A stretch of 64,000 nucleotides of DNA from positions 16,263 through 80,262 of the forward strand of contig CAZJJX010000002.1 of NCBI GenBank assembly GCA_964546555.1. The letters run 5' to 3'. The notes beneath the pieces are model-generated. The model saw only the letters and a program-made list of their open reading frames with translations. It was not told the DNA's origin and did no database searches. The translations under genes and the position numbers were made by a program. Position 1 is the stretch's first letter; each line of letters begins with the position of its first letter. Positions 6,193 through 48,128 of the stretch are shown here, one piece after another. This DNA comes from an uncultured Candidatus Saccharibacteria bacterium. Its GTDB lineage: Bacteria; Patescibacteriota; Minisyncoccia; Phycocordibacterales; UBA5272.

Positions 6193-7893
6193 ATGAATTC
6201 GTACGAGACAATTAAACAGGCGCTCTATACCCTTGCGGGGAGCGGTGTTGCGTTTTCTCTTCTGCAGCCAGAAGATGTGGCGCATGGCGATTATGCGACC
6301 AACATTGCATTTCCACTTTCAAAAGCAAAAGGTGTTTCTCCTAAGGAGTGTGCTTTAGAAATCATTATTCTACTTACTCAGTCACTGTCTGATGTCATAG
6401 AAAAAATAGAAGTCGCAGGTCCTGGTTTTATTAACTTTTACCTTAAAGATGACGTGCGAACTGACGCTGTGGAAGAGATCGCACTACATGGGATCTTAAG
6501 ACCACTCTTAGAAGAGAAAGCACTTGTTGAATACACTGATCCGAACTGTTTTAAGGTTTTTCATATTGGCCACTTGATGGCAAATGCTATAGGGGAATCA
6601 CTTTCTCGAATCTACGAAATGAAAGGCTATGATGTGACTCGAGTGTGCTATCCGTCAGATATCGGTAGGAATGTCGCCATGGGTGTGTGGGGTGTAATGC
6701 AAAAAACTTCTGAGAAACCAGATGAAGAAGCTTCACTTAAGGATAAAGTTGCGTTCCTTGGGATGTGCTATGCGTACGCTCACTCACAGTTTGAAAGCAA
6801 TGAAGCCGCAAAGCATGAGATAGCCGAAGTTAATCGCGCTATTTATGAAGGTACAAATCCTGAAGTTATGGAAGTGTATACTGAAGGACGAGCGCTCTCA
6901 CTCGCGTACTTCGATAGTCTGTATGAAAAGTTAGGCACTACGTTTGATGCTTTTATTTATGAATCTGAAGTTGCAGATCCAGGACTTGCGATTGTGCGTG
7001 AGCATCTTGCAAAAGGTGTCTTTGAAGAGTCAGATGGTGCAATTGTATACAAAGGTGAGCAAGATGGACTCCATACACGAGTGTTTGTTAACGCCCAAGG
7101 GCTTCCAACATACGAAGCAAAGGATCTTGGTAACTATGTTAAGAAAATGGAACTTGTTCCTGATGCGTCATACTATGTTGTTGTAACAGCGAGTGAACAG
7201 AATGAATATTTTAAGGTACTAAATACAGTAACTAAGAAAATTTTCCCACAACTAGAGAACAAACTTGTACACATAAACCACGGCATGATGCGCCTCCCAG
7301 AAGGGAAAATGTCATCTCGTACAGGTAATGTGATAGGGGGTGAAGATATGTTATGTATGATTGAAGAGCGTCTTAAGGAAAAGGTAATTGATATGCGTGT
7401 ACCTGAAGGTGAAATACAAAAGCTTGTGAATGATATTGCAGTTGGTGCAATAAAGTTTTCTATCCTTAAGATCGCACCAGGGAAAGACATTGCATTTGAT
7501 TTTGAGAAGTCACTTTCCTTCGAAGGGGACTCTGGACCGTATCTTCAGTATACGCATGCGAGATTGTGTGCGCTTTTGGATAAAGCAGAAGTAAGTGGTA
7601 TAGATTTTGAACATGGGTATGTTGTAGAAGCACCTGAGGTTGAAGTTGAACGAACTCTCGCGGCATATTCTCAAGTCTTAGAAAAAGCATTTAACGATCT
7701 TGGCCCACATCATATCGTTCAGTACTTACTTGTAGTTACTCGAGTGTTTAATAGTATGTATGCACGCCATCAGATAGTTGATGAGAATAACAAGGATGTA
7801 AGTCGCTACTATGTCATGCTCGCTCAAGCAACAAAAAATATCTTGGCTCACGGACTCAATGTTTTAGGAATTAAGGCACCTGAGAGAATGTAG
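6193..7893 (+). CDS. argS: arginine--tRNA ligase
   Basis: 'HGDYATNIAF', HIGH motif 'FHIGHLMANAIGESLSR', C-terminal DALR anticodon-binding region ending '...ERM'. Confidence 0.9.
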   Translation: MNSYETIKQALYTLAGSGVAFSLLQPEDVAHGDYATNIAFPLSKAKGVSPKECALEIIILLTQSLSDVIEKIEVAGPGFINFYLKDDVRTDAVEEIALHGILRPLLEEKALVEYTDPNCFKVFHIGHLMANAIGESLSRIYEMKGYDVTRVCYPSDIGRNVAMGVWGVMQKTSEKPDEEASLKDKVAFLGMCYAYAHSQFESNEAAKHEIAEVNRAIYEGTNPEVMEVYTEGRALSLAYFDSLYEKLGTTFDAFIYESEVADPGLAIVREHLAKGVFEESDGAIVYKGEQDGLHTRVFVNAQGLPTYEAKDLGNYVKKMELVPDASYYVVVTASEQNEYFKVLNTVTKKIFPQLENKLVHINHGMMRLPEGKMSSRTGNVIGGEDMLCMIEERLKEKVIDMRVPEGEIQKLVNDIAVGAIKFSILKIAPGKDIAFDFEKSLSFEGDSGPYLQYTHARLCALLDKAEVSGIDFEHGYVVEAPEVEVERTLAAYSQVLEKAFNDLGPHHIVQYLLVVTRVFNSMYARHQIVDENNKDVSRYYVMLAQATKNILAHGLNVLGIKAPERM

Positions 7894-9245: not shown

Positions 9246-9379
9246 AGTGGTCTTGTTAGTATAGCGACAAATCTTCTTCTTCCATAGGGAGTATTTACGA
9301 TTGTAAGGGGTGTATGATAGTATAGAAGTGTAAGCGTTGATTGGACTAATCACCCAGGAGCTCAAGGAAGAACGTTGTC

Positions 9380-9512
9380 GAGATATTCTAGATAACTAGT
9401 AGAACCTTAATAATTAAGGGAGTCATTGCACTCTAAAGCAAGGTGGTACCACGGTTTATAAAAATCGTCCTTGAGAAAACAAGCACATTGTTTTCTTAGG
9501 GGCGATTTTTGC
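9380..9512 (+). promoter_or_regulatory. compact T-box riboswitch leader of ileS
   Basis: T-box motif 'AGCAAGGUGGUACCACGG' (9435-9454). Antiterminator: CAAGG / 7-nt bulge UGGUACC / ACGG ... UCGU-CCUUG. Mutually exclusive terminator hairpin AATCGTCCTTGAGAAAACAA...TTGTTTTCTTAGGGGCGATT + TTTTT (9462-9510). Short stem-loop with AUAA in loop (9386-9404). Confidence 0.6.
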
Positions 9513-9553
9513 TTTATATTACTACTAACGCGTTATCAATTACATTTATTACT

Positions 9554-12500
9554 ATGCCTCCAAAATCAATTTCAGAAAAAGAACAAGAAGTGCTCAAATT
9601 CTGGGAAGATAATCACATCTTTGAAAAGTCAGTCAATATGCCTGCAGGCGAACAAGCGCGGGGTAACTTTTCATTTTATGACGGACCACCGTTTGCAACG
9701 GGCCTACCACACTACGGACATATCTTAGCTGGAACTATTAAGGATGCAGTTCCACGTTATCAGACGATGAAAGGAAACTCTGTTCGTCGTGTGTGGGGGT
9801 GGGATTGTCATGGGCTTCCCATTGAAAATTTGATTGAAAAGAAACTTGGGCTTGCAAGTAAAAAGGATATAGAAGATTTTGGAATTGATAAGTTTAATAA
9901 TGATGCGTACCAAAGTGTGCTTCAGTATGAAGAAGAGTGGAAGGGTATTGTTCCGCGTCTTGGAAGATGGATCGATATGGAAAAACCGTATAAGACAATG
10001 GATGCATCATATACGGAAAGTATTTGGTGGGCATGGAAGTCACTCTATGAAAAAAAACTTGCATACGAAGGCAACAAGATGATGCACATTTGTCCTCGTT
10101 GTGAAACAACACTTGCCCAGAGTGAGGTAGGTATGGAGTATCACGATGTTACAGATATTTCCGTCACCGCAAAATTTGAGCTTAAAGATGAGCCGGAAAC
10201 ATTTGTTCTTGCGTGGACAACAACACCATGGACTCTCCCTGGCAATACCGCGCTTGCTATTAATATAGCAATTCCTTATGTAAAAGTGCGAGCTACAAAA
10301 AATGACGGAGTGATAGAATTTTATATTTTAGCAGAAGCAAAGTTTGCAGATTATAAGGTCTATGCAGAAAAAGATTTTAGTAATTTTGAAATAGTGGAGC
10401 AATTACAAGGAAGTGAGCTTGTTGGTAAAACATACAAACCGGTGTTTCCGTATTTTGAAAATGCTGATATAGAAAACAAAGAACATATTTGGAAAGTTTG
10501 GCATGCAGATTTTATTACAGCAGACACTGGAACTGGTATTGCTCACGAAGCTCCAGCATTTGGTGCTGAGGACATGGAACTTGCCAAGGCGCATAAGATT
10601 CCTATTATCAAGCATGTGAAAATGGATGGAACATTTACTTCATCTGTAACAGATTTTGCTGGGATGAAAGTAAAAGTAAAAGACGACACCCAGTCTGCAG
10701 ACATTGAGATTATTAAGTGGCTTGCTCATAATGGTAAGCTCTTTGAGAAGCATAAAATTATTCACTCGTATCCACTTTGTTGGCGATGTAAAACACCGCT
10801 TCTTAACTATGCAACATCGTCGTGGTTTGTGGATGTTCCGAAAATAAAGGAGAAGCTTCTTAGTGAGAACAAGCAGATTGGATGGACGCCATCTCATACC
10901 CGTGACGGACGTTTCGGTAAATGGCTTGAAGGTGCTCGTGAGTGGGCTGTGTCACGTTCAAGATACTGGGGTGCACCACTTCCTGTATGGAAGAATAGTG
11001 ATGGTAGTGAAGTAAAAGTAATTGGCTCACTCAAAGAGCTTGCAGAAGCTAATATGGTAAAGCCAAAGAATACATATTTTGCTATGCGTCATGGGGAATC
11101 TGTTTTTAATACACTTAATAAATTAGATTCACTAGGAAATAAAGATAATGTTCTTACCAAAAAAGGTGTTGGTCAAATAAAGGAAGCAATTAGTAAGCTT
11201 AAGGATCTTAAGGTTGATGTTATTATCTCTTCACCATTACCTCGTACAATAGAGAGTGCGGAGATTCTGTCAGAGGCACTTGGTATCAAGTATGAGGTTG
11301 ATGAAAACTTGCGAGAATTTAATTTTGGGGAGTACGAAAATGTCTCAGCATCAGAGTTTCATGAGATGAAAGATATTCACGAGAATCCATATAAGCGAGT
11401 TCCAGGTGGAGAGTCGTTTAAGGATGGTGCGTACAGATTCATGAAAGTTGTTGGTGCATGCGAAGAGAATTATACAAATAAAAAGATCCTCCTTGTTACT
11501 CATGGATCACATGTCTATATGGGTACTCGTGAAGCAGAATTAGTAACAGATGAGATGATGATACATGGAGGAAAAGACGGACATACAATCAATGTTAAAA
11601 ATGGAGACGTTGTTTCTTTTACTCCACACTGTGTTCCTCGAGATGAGACTGGTGCAGTTAATCTCCATCGTCCATACATTGACCAGATTGAGATGATTGA
11701 CAGTAAAGGAAATCCTATGAAGCGTATAGGGGATGTGTTTGACTGTTGGTTTGAGTCTGGGTCTATGCCGTTTGCGTCTATTCATTATCCATTTGAGAAT
11801 AAAGAAGTTTTTGATAAAAATTATCCAGCGCAGTTTATTGCGGAGGGGATGGATCAGACCAGAGGTTGGTTCTACTCGCTCATTAACCTTGGTGTTGGAT
11901 TATTTGATAAGGCACCCTATGAACATGTGATAGTAAATGGGTTAGTGCTTGCGTCTTCAGGAGTAAAGCTCTCTAAGAGTGAAAAGAATTACACTGACCC
12001 GATGGAGCTTGTAGAGAAGTATGGAGCTGATGCAATGCGTTATGCGCTTCTGTCTTCTCCTGTCGTAAAAGGTGAGAACTTACAATTTGATGATGAGAAT
12101 ATTTCTGATGTGTATAAGAAATGCATTAGTCGACTCGAAAACGTTGTAACACTCTATGAGATGAATAAGGAAGATGAGGTGCAAGCATCAACAAGTTCAA
12201 CAAACATACTCGATAGATGGATGGTTGCACGTATGCACGAGCTTGTAGAAAGCTCTACTCGTGGTTATGATCAATACTTACTCGATGACGCTACTCGAGG
12301 AATAGGAGATATCATAGATGATATATCAGTTTGGTATACACGTAGAAGTCGCGAGCGTCTTAAGGGTGATGAAGGAGAGGACGCAAAGCGCGAAGCATAC
12401 CAAACACTTACTTACACGTTACTTACACTTGCAAAAATCATGGCACCAGTGATGCCATTTATCGCCGAGCGAGTCTATAAAGCAGTTGGCGGAGAAAAGG

Positions 12501-13009
12501 AGTCGGTACATCTTGATAGTTGGCCTACAGAAAGTGCTATCGACACTGATCTCATTACTGATATGAAATTAGTTCGTGAGCTTGTATCACTTGGTCTTAT
12601 GAAGCGCACAGAGTCAAAGATAAACGTGAAGCAACCATTACTTTCAGTAACTTTTAATAGAGCTCTTGATGAAAAGTATTTCGGTCTGATAATCGATGAG
12701 CTCAATGTTAAAGAAGTAAAGATTGACGAAACCTCAATAGTCGACGTGATACTTAATACAACCATTACAGAAGAATTACAAAAAGAAGGAGATATGCGTA
12801 AGCTCATGCGTGCTATTCAGGATGCCCGAAAAGAAAAAGGACTATCTCCAAGTGATAGTGTTACTCTTATCGTTTCCTCTCTTACGCTTCTTTCAGACGA
12901 TACCCAACTTCGTGCAACCTGTAAAATATCTTCAATCAAAGAAGATGTGTCTATTGTGTCTAATCCAACAGATTTTTCTCAACACACTTTGTATTTTGGT
13001 ATTGAATAA
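9554..13009 (+). CDS. ileS: isoleucine--tRNA ligase, type 2 (eukaryote-like) with an inserted histidine-phosphatase domain
   Basis: 'FYDGPPFATGLPHYGHIL' (HIGH), CP1 editing region, 'RVGDVFDCWFESGSMP' and 'NLHRPYID' type-2 blocks, 'KLSKS' (KMSKS). Start taken at MPPKSI (ORF track 9509). Confidence 0.9.
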   Translation: MPPKSISEKEQEVLKFWEDNHIFEKSVNMPAGEQARGNFSFYDGPPFATGLPHYGHILAGTIKDAVPRYQTMKGNSVRRVWGWDCHGLPIENLIEKKLGLASKKDIEDFGIDKFNNDAYQSVLQYEEEWKGIVPRLGRWIDMEKPYKTMDASYTESIWWAWKSLYEKKLAYEGNKMMHICPRCETTLAQSEVGMEYHDVTDISVTAKFELKDEPETFVLAWTTTPWTLPGNTALAINIAIPYVKVRATKNDGVIEFYILAEAKFADYKVYAEKDFSNFEIVEQLQGSELVGKTYKPVFPYFENADIENKEHIWKVWHADFITADTGTGIAHEAPAFGAEDMELAKAHKIPIIKHVKMDGTFTSSVTDFAGMKVKVKDDTQSADIEIIKWLAHNGKLFEKHKIIHSYPLCWRCKTPLLNYATSSWFVDVPKIKEKLLSENKQIGWTPSHTRDGRFGKWLEGAREWAVSRSRYWGAPLPVWKNSDGSEVKVIGSLKELAEANMVKPKNTYFAMRHGESVFNTLNKLDSLGNKDNVLTKKGVGQIKEAISKLKDLKVDVIISSPLPRTIESAEILSEALGIKYEVDENLREFNFGEYENVSASEFHEMKDIHENPYKRVPGGESFKDGAYRFMKVVGACEENYTNKKILLVTHGSHVYMGTREAELVTDEMMIHGGKDGHTINVKNGDVVSFTPHCVPRDETGAVNLHRPYIDQIEMIDSKGNPMKRIGDVFDCWFESGSMPFASIHYPFENKEVFDKNYPAQFIAEGMDQTRGWFYSLINLGVGLFDKAPYEHVIVNGLVLASSGVKLSKSEKNYTDPMELVEKYGADAMRYALLSSPVVKGENLQFDDENISDVYKKCISRLENVVTLYEMNKEDEVQASTSSTNILDRWMVARMHELVESSTRGYDQYLLDDATRGIGDIIDDISVWYTRRSRERLKGDEGEDAKREAYQTLTYTLLTLAKIMAPVMPFIAERVYKAVGGEKESVHLDSWPTESAIDTDLITDMKLVRELVSLGLMKRTESKINVKQPLLSVTFNRALDEKYFGLIIDELNVKEVKIDETSIVDVILNTTITEELQKEGDMRKLMRAIQDARKEKGLSPSDSVTLIVSSLTLLSDDTQLRATCKISSIKEDVSIVSNPTDFSQHTLYFGIE
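11066..11560 (+). other. in-frame inserted histidine phosphatase (PGAM/branch-1) domain within IleRS
   Basis: 'YFAMRHGESVFN' (RHGE catalytic His motif), 'VIISSPLPRTIESAEIL', 'ILLVTHGSHV' (C-terminal HG). Lies between the 'WGAPLPVW...VIGSLKELAEA' and 'NLHRPYID' blocks that are ~40 aa apart in ordinary type-2 IleRS. Confidence 0.7.
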
Positions 13010-44314: not shown

Positions 44315-44711
44315 TGGTGGAGATGGCGAGAATCGAACTCGCGTGTACTAAGGTATGAGGTATGGGTCTACTGTACGTAGTTTGCTTCATGTGTTCGCAT
44401 TCATTATTAAAAGCAAACTAAAGCAATGAATGTATAGCATGAATTATTTCAAGTATAGTGTTATGCAACACTGTGCTCTACATCTACTGTTATATTGCCA
44501 GCAGTCATCCCGTAGATGCGAACGAAAGTGACACCAGATCGGCCAGTAATTTAGGCGAATGCTGGAACTAGTCCGTTTGCCATGTATGGTGAACGGATAG
44601 CCTTACCAGTTGAGTTTGCAACATGGTCTCTCCGGTCTTTTACGAGTTGCGGAGAATTCTCGGTACAGCACATACAACATATTCTTAGTATCGATGCCAA
44701 AGATCATCCCC
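44315..44711 (-). ncRNA. ssrA: tmRNA (SsrA), ~397 nt; predicted tag (A)ANGLVPAFA
   Basis: 3' tRNA-like end 'GCGAG-TTCGATT-CTCGC-CATCTCC-A-CCA' (44315-44343); 5' 'GGGGGATGATCTTTGGCATCGATAC' pairs to give a G3:U70 acceptor stem; internal 'GCA AAC GGA CTA GTT CCA GCA TTC GCC TAA' (44551-44580); smpB 400 bp away. Confidence 0.75.
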
Positions 44712-47923: not shown

Positions 47924-48055
47924 GAAAGGGGGGTGATGGGGAAGAAATAAGGGTGGAGGCGAAGCCTCCACCCTTATTTCTTCCCCATAGAAACATTTGC
48001 TATTTTTTGCTATAGTACAGTAACAAAATAGTAAGTAACGTCGTATCAGCAAAGT

Positions 48056-48128
48056 GCATCCATAGCTCAGTTGGTAGAGCCGTCGTCTTATACACGACTG
48101 GTCCCTGGTTCGAGTCCAGGTGGATGCA
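48056..48128 (+). tRNA. tRNA-Ile, anticodon UAU (reads AUA); CCA not encoded
   Basis: Cloverleaf by hand: acceptor GCATCCA/TGGATGC, D GCTC/GAGC, anticodon stem GTCGT/ACGAC with loop CTTATAC (U33, anticodon TAT, A37), T arm CCTGG-TTCGAGT-CCAGG, discriminator A. Confidence 0.75.

Follow-up and report, generated by a model that had tools for sequence, protein, structure and literature searches.

We report here on the leader of the isoleucyl-tRNA synthetase gene ileS in a 64-kb stretch of DNA from an uncultured Candidatus Saccharibacteria bacterium (the window, by which we mean this whole stretch). Judging from its predicted fold and from its relatives, this leader is very probably a genuine T-box riboswitch with an AUC specifier. 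With slightly less, but still high, confidence we propose that it senses tRNA-Ile and would control ileS through transcription attenuation, using a decoding module of the Class III type built on a miniature, ultrashort stem I. The element spans positions ~9333 to 9516, for an RNA of ~185 nt. An earlier reading of the same DNA, hereafter the first-pass annotation, had placed a leader of only ~130 nt at 9380-9512, and this interval starts too late: it misses stem I (9333-9362) together with the 5' half of stem II.

Both strands of the window were searched with the Rfam T-box model RF00230, which matches 9328-9475 over the full model with 39.2 bits (E = 2.1e-7 for the leader alone, 3.4e-5 for the whole window with both strands). 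The alignment pairs the base of stem I and deletes 75 distal stem I positions of the model, with 6 nt in their place; it is this alignment that puts the start of the element ~50 nt upstream of the earlier interval. The match is unique: no further T-box was found in the window either by Rfam in E-value mode or by an nhmmer profile of the family, argS (6193-7893) carries no T-box, and the window encodes no valyl-tRNA synthetase (ValRS).

For comparison, 42 ileS loci were fetched from one-per-species genomes. All of them belong to metagenome-assembled genomes of the candidate phyla radiation (CPR, or Patescibacteria; labels include Paceibacterota, Nomurabacteria, Parcubacteria and some Saccharibacteria), and their IleS proteins are 60-84% identical to that of the window. 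The element is found upstream of ileS in 37 of the 39 informative loci, which together with the E-value of 3.4e-5 in the window sets it above chance, and GGUGGUACC lies ~100-290 nt upstream of ileS in 34 loci. At one locus (L014) the T-box (772-897) stands ~600 nt upstream of ileS (1501) with a same-strand open reading frame (ORF) between them, and a gene may have been inserted into the regulated unit; at two others (L006 and L007) the contig ends cut through the terminator. The sole informative loci without the element, L020 and L023, share another upstream motif, CATCGTGCCGTTTCGCCC, with a GC-rich stretch and a terminator-like hairpin (~1170-1500 in each), a region that may be an alternative leader.

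Complete leaders (n=35), or the 34 of them in a core alignment, were used for the counts of structure and conservation given below. Their modules follow one order. Stem I comes first, joined by 0-1 nt (4 nt in one leader) to stem II; then come an A-rich linker, stem III, 3-5 A-rich nucleotides, the antiterminator (helix A1, the bulge UGGUACC and helix A2) and the terminator. In the window, the corresponding features are the following.

9294-9323, + strand: putative promoter, with a -35 box TTTACG (9294-9299), an 18-nt spacer and an extended -10 element consisting of TG (9315-9316) and TAGTAT (9318-9323)
9333-9362, + strand: ultrashort stem I of 30 nt, AGC-GUU-GA-UUGGA-[CUAAUCA]-CCCAG-GA-GCU, placed by the RF00230 alignment and the 35 leaders
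9333-9335/9360-9362, + strand: C-stem AGC/GCU of stem I, with the bulge GUU (9336-9338) and the tandem G.A/A.G pairs of the K-turn (9339-9340/9358-9359)
9341-9345/9353-9357, + strand: NC stem UUGGA/CCCAG of stem I, with the apical loop CUAAUCA (9346-9352)
9349-9352, + strand: specifier AUC (9349-9351), its predicted partner being the GAU anticodon of tRNA-Ile, and the purine A9352 on its 3' side
9364-9408, + strand: stem II, with the lower helix AAGG/CCUU (9364-9367/9405-9408) and the S-turn loop AAGAA (9368-9372)/AGUAGAA (9398-9404)
9373-9397, + strand: variable distal hairpin of stem II, with the helix GUUGUC (9374-9379)/GAUAAC (9391-9396)
9409-9418, + strand: A-rich single-stranded linker AAUAAUUAAG
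9419-9433, + strand: stem III hairpin, matching stem III in the RF00230 alignment, then UAAAG (9434-9438) leading into A1
9439-9473, + strand: antiterminator, with A1 CAAGG/CCUUG (9439-9443/9469-9473), the bulge UGGUACC (9444-9450) and A2 ACG/CGU (9451-9453/9466-9468), extendable to 7 bp
9462-9516, + strand: intrinsic terminator, a 21-bp hairpin (9462-9508) with a U-rich tail to 9516, its 5' strand holding the 3' strands of A2 and A1
9554-13009, + strand: ileS, encoding a type-2 isoleucyl-tRNA synthetase of 1151 aa, assigned by Pfam and PDB sequence search

The 3' half of the leader is as the first-pass annotation had drawn it. The T-box sequence AGCAAGGUGGUACCACGG is present at 9437-9454, and the antiterminator, with CAAGG/CCUUG, the bulge UGGUACC and ACG(G) at 9451-9454 facing (U)CGU at 9465-9468, folds alone at -7.5 kcal/mol. 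The terminator hairpin shares UCGUCCUUG with the antiterminator, folds at -27.4 kcal/mol (z = -9.0; z-scores are measured against shuffled sequences) and is followed by a U-tract; the ATG of ileS comes 45 nt past the hairpin, at 9554, with no obvious Shine-Dalgarno in between. The shared strand and the fold energies support the predicted logic that had been claimed for this gene, in which antiterminator and terminator exclude each other.

This arrangement is conserved. The bulge UGGUACC, of the 7-nt UGGNACC form, is invariant in the 35 leaders, and its UGGU (9444-9447) is the predicted partner of the tRNA 3' ACCA. A1 and A2 are paired in 34/34 aligned sequences, with one CG-to-UA double change in A1. 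All 35 leaders carry a terminator of 16-25 bp and -15 to -34 kcal/mol with a U-tail, the upper stems of which vary in sequence yet stay paired, and in all 35 it takes in CGUCCUUG; the minimal antiterminator helices amount to -2 to -4 kcal/mol in the leaders. In the window, the gene upstream of the leader is divergent, so the hairpin cannot be the terminator of that gene. The ileS element is likely to act by transcription termination.

Precedent would favour a different output, namely an AUC-reading T-box acting on translation, as in Actinobacteria, or on mRNA stability. All ultrashort-stem-I T-boxes described so far are translational, the field argues that a co-transcriptional decision needs fast tRNA capture via a long stem I, and one aspS-type relative described below (L043) looks translational. 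We nevertheless consider this reading unlikely: the alternative hairpin with its U-tract is present in 35/35 leaders, includes neither a Shine-Dalgarno nor a start codon, and leaves 29-101 nt between its end and the start codon (216 nt in L021 only), so that its anatomy is that of an intrinsic terminator and not of a sequestrator.

The decoding half of the termination-controlled T-box that we propose lies largely upstream of the earlier interval. In most of the 35 leaders an arrangement of the type TTTAC/TTGC ... TGnTAGTAT / TGTAATAT stands at a constant distance from stem I; at 9294-9323 the putative promoter was not called by a simple consensus scanner. From this arrangement, the transcription start is predicted at ~9330-9332, that is 1-3 nt ahead of stem I. 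The stem I module is fixed at 29-31 nt in 35/35 leaders. At the level of sequence it contains a K-turn, with a tandem GA in 31/35 leaders and a covarying C-stem, and compensatory changes are seen, among others, at its foot (AU 22/UA 8, or AU 21/UA 8 in the core alignment of 34) and in its upper stem (GC 23/AU 12, or GC 23/AU 11 in the core alignment).

The apical loop of stem I holds AUC in 35/35 leaders, followed by A in 34 and by G in one. As expected of a specifier, the codon is one for isoleucine, in keeping with the ileS gene downstream, and a conserved purine stands on its 3' side. Because AUC is invariant in the stem I loop at the position that pairs with GAU in the Nocardia farcinica structure, the predicted cognate ligand is tRNA-Ile(GAU). 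The first-pass annotation had raised the possibility of an AUA specifier and tRNA-Ile(UAU); both give way here to AUC at 9349-9351 with A9352, upstream of the interval then considered. The window ileS itself uses 57 AUU/AUC and 20 AUA codons, and an AUC specifier would therefore monitor the major isoacceptor.

AUC could in principle be read by both Ile isoacceptors, with tRNA-Ile(UAU) accepted through a tolerated U34-C mismatch, so that the switch would integrate both chargings. Both tRNA-Ile are substrates of the regulated enzyme, each would carry A73, and a glyS T-box with the specifier GGC is reported as responsive to the GCC and UCC tRNA-Gly isoacceptors (PMC4574755). We rate such dual sensing as quite improbable, since in N. 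farcinica the third pair, C18-G34, is read by two stem II adenosines, and substituting either one costs >1000-fold in tRNA binding. Those S-turn residues are conserved in the CPR leaders, and the leader data do not support mismatch tolerance.

Stem II accounts for the segment in which the AUA specifier had been sought. Its lower helix covaries (GC 29/AU 6 and GC 33/AU 2; GC 28/AU 6 for the former in the core alignment of 34), and its S-turn strands are conserved as AAGAA in 35/35 leaders and as xGUAGAR in nearly all. The AAGAA/AGUAGAA pair is identical to that of N. farcinica and Mycobacterium tuberculosis and is flanked by covarying helices, from which an S-turn function is predicted. Above it, the distal helix of the window folds at -6.7 kcal/mol (z = -3.0) and appears in both the minimum free energy and the centroid fold of the whole leader. 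Across homologs the length of the distal part is 12-55 nt, its sequences are unrelated, its loops include GAAA, GCAA and GUAA, and no AUA is conserved there; it nonetheless forms a simple hairpin, '.(((...))).', in 31/35 leaders, and its four anchored pairs all show double changes, with three to six pair types each.

The first-pass annotation had proposed a compact T-box with a possible AUA specifier in the loop of a single short stem-loop at 9386-9404, sensing the tRNA-Ile(UAU) of 48056. That tRNA does exist (48056-48128) with discriminator A and would fit the UGGU bulge, AUA codons are in use (20 of 77 Ile codons in ileS), and CUAG can be drawn pairing with CUAG around an AUAA loop. The hairpin is nonetheless at chance level, at -1.7 kcal/mol and z = -0.41, with 48/200 shuffles folding at least as well, and it competes with the stronger, covariation-backed distal helix of stem II while its 3' arm takes 9398-9401 of the conserved S-turn strand. 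The region is hypervariable, AUA is conserved in no homolog, and in 35/35 leaders the stem I loop over the K-turn, further upstream, carries a specifier of the canonical kind (AUC and a purine) at the site where solved structures show pairing with GAU. We reject the AUA specifier as very improbable: AUAA (9393-9396) belongs to the distal helix of stem II, as part of its 3' strand.

Between the AUC-reading module and the antiterminator, the linker including its purine string measures 8-12 nt in 35/35 leaders and ends in A(U/C)(G/A)AG. A hairpin at the stem III position, 3-5 nt ahead of A1, is present in nearly all 35 leaders, with unrelated sequences and often GNRA-type loops. The purine flanks of stem III (5'-RRRxG-stem III-AA-3') are matched loosely, by A(U/C)(G/A)AG on the 5' side of ileS leaders (UUAAG in the window) and an AA-rich 3' side.

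Pair counts rest on an anchor-based segmentation of the 35 leaders and on a gapless core alignment of 34 leaders and 94 columns; a MAFFT alignment of entire leaders was left out because it is out of register by one base where the linker joins stem I to stem II. As controls, the 3' partners were slid by 1-3 columns, and 500 shuffles served as the covariation null. In the core alignment, the proposed structure pairs 87% of cells compared to 29-47% for the slid controls, changes on both sides occur in 15/26 pairs, and the covariation score of 0.298 is reached by none of the 500 shuffles, which give 0.123 +/- 0.009. This covariation effectively refutes the idea of a decaying relic or a chance T-box-like sequence beside an ordinary terminator with no regulatory role, to which the sub-threshold Rfam score, the several missing canonical modules and the loss of the element in L020 and L023 might point: compensatory substitutions have accumulated across 35 leaders whose IleS is just 60-84% identical to the window's, while the specifier, the S-turn and UGGUACC are invariant and the divergent upstream gene rules out the hairpin as its terminator.

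Several observations weigh against a functional T-box of the kind we propose. The RF00230 score of 39.2 bits does not reach the gathering score of 93 bits, and at gathering thresholds Rfam yields just one tmRNA and one tRNA in the window. The search that the first-pass annotation had put forward as a check on its T-box was thus positive as to the match and negative as to the threshold. [quoted passage not shown] The long stem I with distal interdigitated T-loops for the tRNA elbow is absent from the leaders, and this distal platform has been called essential for transcriptional T-boxes.

Also missing is the stem IIA/B pseudoknot. Across the 35 leaders, the linker was searched for helices of at least 4 bp with the loops of stem I, stem III and A2, with the 3' spacer and with the K-turn bulge, and no consistent one was found; the commonest partner of the linker, the A/U-rich A2 loop in 14/35 leaders, was judged a chance pairing between AU-rich segments. 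In N. farcinica, deleting this pseudoknot costs ~1200-fold in tRNA binding, and a hairpin substitute recovers 200-fold (PMC7583486). Canonical T-boxes conserve a G.U wobble at the foot of A2, which a review describes as the primary steric sensor of the 3'-aminoacyl group; the ileS leaders have A-U there instead, in 34/34 aligned leaders (columns 78/89 of the core alignment) and as A9451-U9468 in the window. Lastly, no gene for tRNA-Ile(GAU) was found in the window or the fetched loci, where no tRNA genes turned up in 45 loci scanned.

We propose the following mechanism, in which tRNA binding, tRNA identity, termination and readthrough, and operation without the stem I platform and stem IIA/B are all inferred from anatomy, covariation and homology. 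Transcription would begin at ~9331 and stem I would fold, its basal K-turn presenting the apical loop CUA-AUC-A. Stem II would fold next, the K-turn docking the S-turn purines (AAGAA/AGUAGAA) against the specifier, and the groove so formed would grip tRNA-Ile(GAU) by its anticodon stem-loop, with AUC paired to GAU. The 3' ACCA of an uncharged tRNA bound in this way could pair with UGGU (9444-9447) and stack on A1, stabilising the weak antiterminator and allowing readthrough into ileS. With charged tRNA, or none, the far stabler terminator (9462-9508) would capture the 3' strands of A2 and A1, and transcription would end in the U-tract. Stem III, 8-12 nt from stem II, might stack under stem II in place of the pseudoknot, an idea prompted by the 200-fold recovery that a plain hairpin gives in N. 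farcinica.

Two kinds of inserts recur within the leaders. A palindromic insert of 30-39 nt, CCAGUUUUG...CAAAACUGG, sits in either orientation on the apex of distal stem II or stem III, and was found nowhere else in the DNA of the fetched loci and the window; it may represent a very small mobile hairpin that apical loops can accommodate. Its sites are the following.

L001, 1303-1341
L002, 1305-1340
L013, 1218-1254
L019, 1334-1372
L025, 1304-1333
L041, 1169-1207

The second insert recurs in the distal stem II of L005, L012, L019 and L034 and includes a hairpin of the UUCG type, ACCUUCGGUCGGGCA; it suggests a conserved branch in a subset of leaders.

The regulated enzyme and the remainder of the window gave further observations. 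The window IleRS is of type 2 (IleRS2, eukaryote-like) and carries a histidine-phosphatase domain (PhoE-like, Pfam His_Phos_1) inserted in its catalytic core at window positions 11072-11521 (aa ~507-656), with an intact RHG motif (MRHGES). The same insert is found at the same site in the IleS of the deeper relative L044 and, judged by full-length coverage, in 42 CPR relatives. We know of no described IleRS with a histidine-phosphatase insert. The tRNA-Ile(UAU) gene (+ strand) scores 68.5 bits, has discriminator A and does not encode CCA; its presence implies that AUA is decoded by a UAU tRNA and not by a lysidine-modified CAU tRNA. Just upstream of it lies a perfect palindrome (47939-47985), which is probably a terminator or hairpin and whose matches to miRNA models on both strands are at chance level. 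A tmRNA gene is located at 44315-44711 on the - strand (86.5 bits).

We then looked beyond ileS, scanning metagenome contigs for the framework of K-turn, 7-nt loop and S-turn with a specifier not starting with A. Three loci were returned, and 3/3 have a T-box bulge downstream. The short-stem-I relatives outside the comparison set are listed here.

L045 (39% GC), 1079-1249, - strand: loop UUA-GUC-A, bulge UGGUACC and a terminator of -26.4 kcal/mol, upstream of a class I synthetase
L046, 535-678, + strand: fetched via the L045 protein, with a ValRS 67% identical to that of L045 and the same leader, GUC kept
L043 (71% GC), 11431-11614, - strand: loop AUA-GAC-G, bulge UGGC (which fits a G73 tRNA), G.U at the A2 base and a IIA/B-like segment
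L044 (45% GC): ileS leader with AUC shifted by one loop position, a hairpin resembling stem IIA with CCGUUA after it, and a further hairpin with a U-tract; its IleS is 43% identical to that of the window

The closest relatives of the L045 synthetase are annotated as valine-tRNA ligase in Collierbacteria, Levybacteria and Woesebacteria, all CPR. Compared to L045, the L046 leader shows compensatory changes in stem I (UCGAAG/CUUCGG vs AAGAG/CUCUG) and in A1 (CGAGG/CCUCG vs AGAGG/CCUCU). These two valS leaders (Collierbacteria-like) have strong terminators, lack stem IIA/B and stem III and are smaller than the ileS element; five more distant ValRS loci (L047-L051) have no T-box. As a side observation, the gene calls divide ValRS between two ORFs, consecutive or overlapping, in L046 (701-2751), L049 (701-2624), L050 (701-2681) and L051 (701-3221), and in those CPR contigs the gene may be split or carry recurrent frameshifts. 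The L043 T-box stands upstream of a class II synthetase of the Asp/Lys/Asn type (aspS-type), the exact start of which is uncertain, and the exact complement of GGUGGCACC makes up the Shine-Dalgarno sequestrator of this leader. The A2-foot pair, next to the stacking site of tA76, is G-C in the valS leaders and in L044 and G.U in L043.

Because specifier, bulge and downstream gene agree in each case, L043-L046 are unlikely to be chance matches. With one or two examples each, the non-Ile short-stem-I cases are a lead and not an established family. We tentatively entertain, at somewhat less than an even chance, that short-stem-I T-boxes are not confined to translational control of ileS in Actinobacteria but form a broader, unannotated family of minimal tRNA sensors, in CPR (Paceibacteria-type ileS and Microgenomatia-type valS) and beyond (GC-rich aspS-type). 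If true, such a family would define the smallest natural T-box, at ~140 nt, and would let CPR bacteria, whose amino acids come from hosts, read tRNA charging directly at the RNA level.

The RF00230 scores are 29.8-48.3 bits for eight family members and 28.7 for L045. According to the TBDB preprint, transcriptional T-boxes were collected with RF00230, and a custom short-stem-I Ile model was run on Actinobacteria only. Standard pipelines would thus miss the family, because its members score far below the Rfam threshold and the short-stem-I model was confined to Actinobacteria; a dedicated covariance model would recover it. The first-pass annotation had remarked that a T-box is unexpected in a CPR-like host. 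The host does belong to CPR/Patescibacteria, and full-text literature searches gave no paper pairing T-boxes with Patescibacteria/CPR, Saccharibacteria or Parcubacteria, a result that is suggestive only since most subscription papers lie outside their coverage.

Almost nothing is known of gene regulation in the reduced, host-dependent CPR bacteria, where an ileS T-box would directly sense isoleucine supply. By the working rule of the field, a transcriptional T-box depends on the platform of a long stem I to catch its tRNA before the polymerase arrives at the terminator, and the ultrashort class is translational and restricted to ileS. A conserved family joining an ultrashort stem I to a terminator would be a natural counterexample to this rule and, as it lacks both platform and pseudoknot, would make the roles of those modules testable with natural sequences. 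The ~140 nt from stem I to the antiterminator would also offer a compact natural scaffold for tRNA-responsive switches.

In the literature, T-boxes fall into four classes. The closest known systems are the actinobacterial Class III T-boxes of N. farcinica (PDB 6UFM) and M. tuberculosis (PDB 6UFG), which regulate the same gene, an ileS of type 2, and for which we took the decoding-domain sequences T99 and T87 from PMC10651847, Supplementary Table 2. Stems I and II are collinear with both, 31/43 fixed positions (72%) matching the CPR consensus, which bears out the kinship with short-stem-I actinobacterial ileS T-boxes that the first-pass annotation had suspected. The actinobacterial sequences parse with the same pattern, GGC-GAC-GA-UCCGG-[CCAUCA]-CCGGG-GA-GCC, then CGG-AAGAA ... 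AGUAGAA-CCG. Shared are the specifier AUC plus A in the apical loop, a short stem I set directly on a K-turn without a T-loop platform, the identical S-turn strands, the order of modules, the bulge UGGUACC, and ileS immediately downstream, from which a response to tRNA-Ile is predicted. In N. farcinica, AUC is A16-U17-C18, with C18 pairing to tG34, and the purine string is A38/A39 with A69-G70-A71 (PMC7583486); the CPR residues correspond to these one to one, and we therefore treat the decoding module as homologous to that of Class III.

The differences are equally clear. The CPR expression platform is an intrinsic terminator, whereas theirs is a Shine-Dalgarno sequestrator, so that the translational mode of Class III is not shared; an A-rich linker of 8-12 nt stands where they have a 21-nt stem IIA/B pseudoknot (CGGG-UGAGC-CCCG-UCACA-GCUC); the CPR loop has 7 nt (CUAAUCA, closed by an A.C mismatch) and theirs 6 (CCAUCA or CGAUCA); the CPR leaders have A-U at the A2 base; and the host is a member of CPR/Patescibacteria. 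As the deeper relative L044 keeps a stem IIA-like hairpin with CCGUUA, the comparison suggests that the lineage of the window has lost the pseudoknot.

With canonical transcriptional T-boxes (RF00230, Class I, e.g. Bacillus subtilis tyrS), the CPR element shares the antiterminator/terminator logic, the T-box sequence, a basal K-turn, a specifier followed by a purine, an S-turn stem II, a stem III whose purine flanks match loosely, and its place ahead of an aminoacyl-tRNA synthetase gene. It differs in lacking ~75 nt of stem I, with the specifier internal loop and the interdigitated T-loops, in carrying the specifier in a terminal loop, in lacking stem IIA/B, in having A-U in place of G.U at the A2 base, and in scoring 29-48 bits against 93. 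The glycine (Class II) T-boxes, e.g. B. subtilis glyQS, are likewise compact and transcriptional, with no stem IIA/B and a single-stranded linker between the domains, but glyQS has a long stem I with an elbow platform and no stem II, whereas the CPR element has a short stem I and keeps stem II. Taken together, these comparisons indicate that the ileS leader of the window is, by its predicted anatomy, a terminator-coupled, pseudoknot-less Class III-like T-box.

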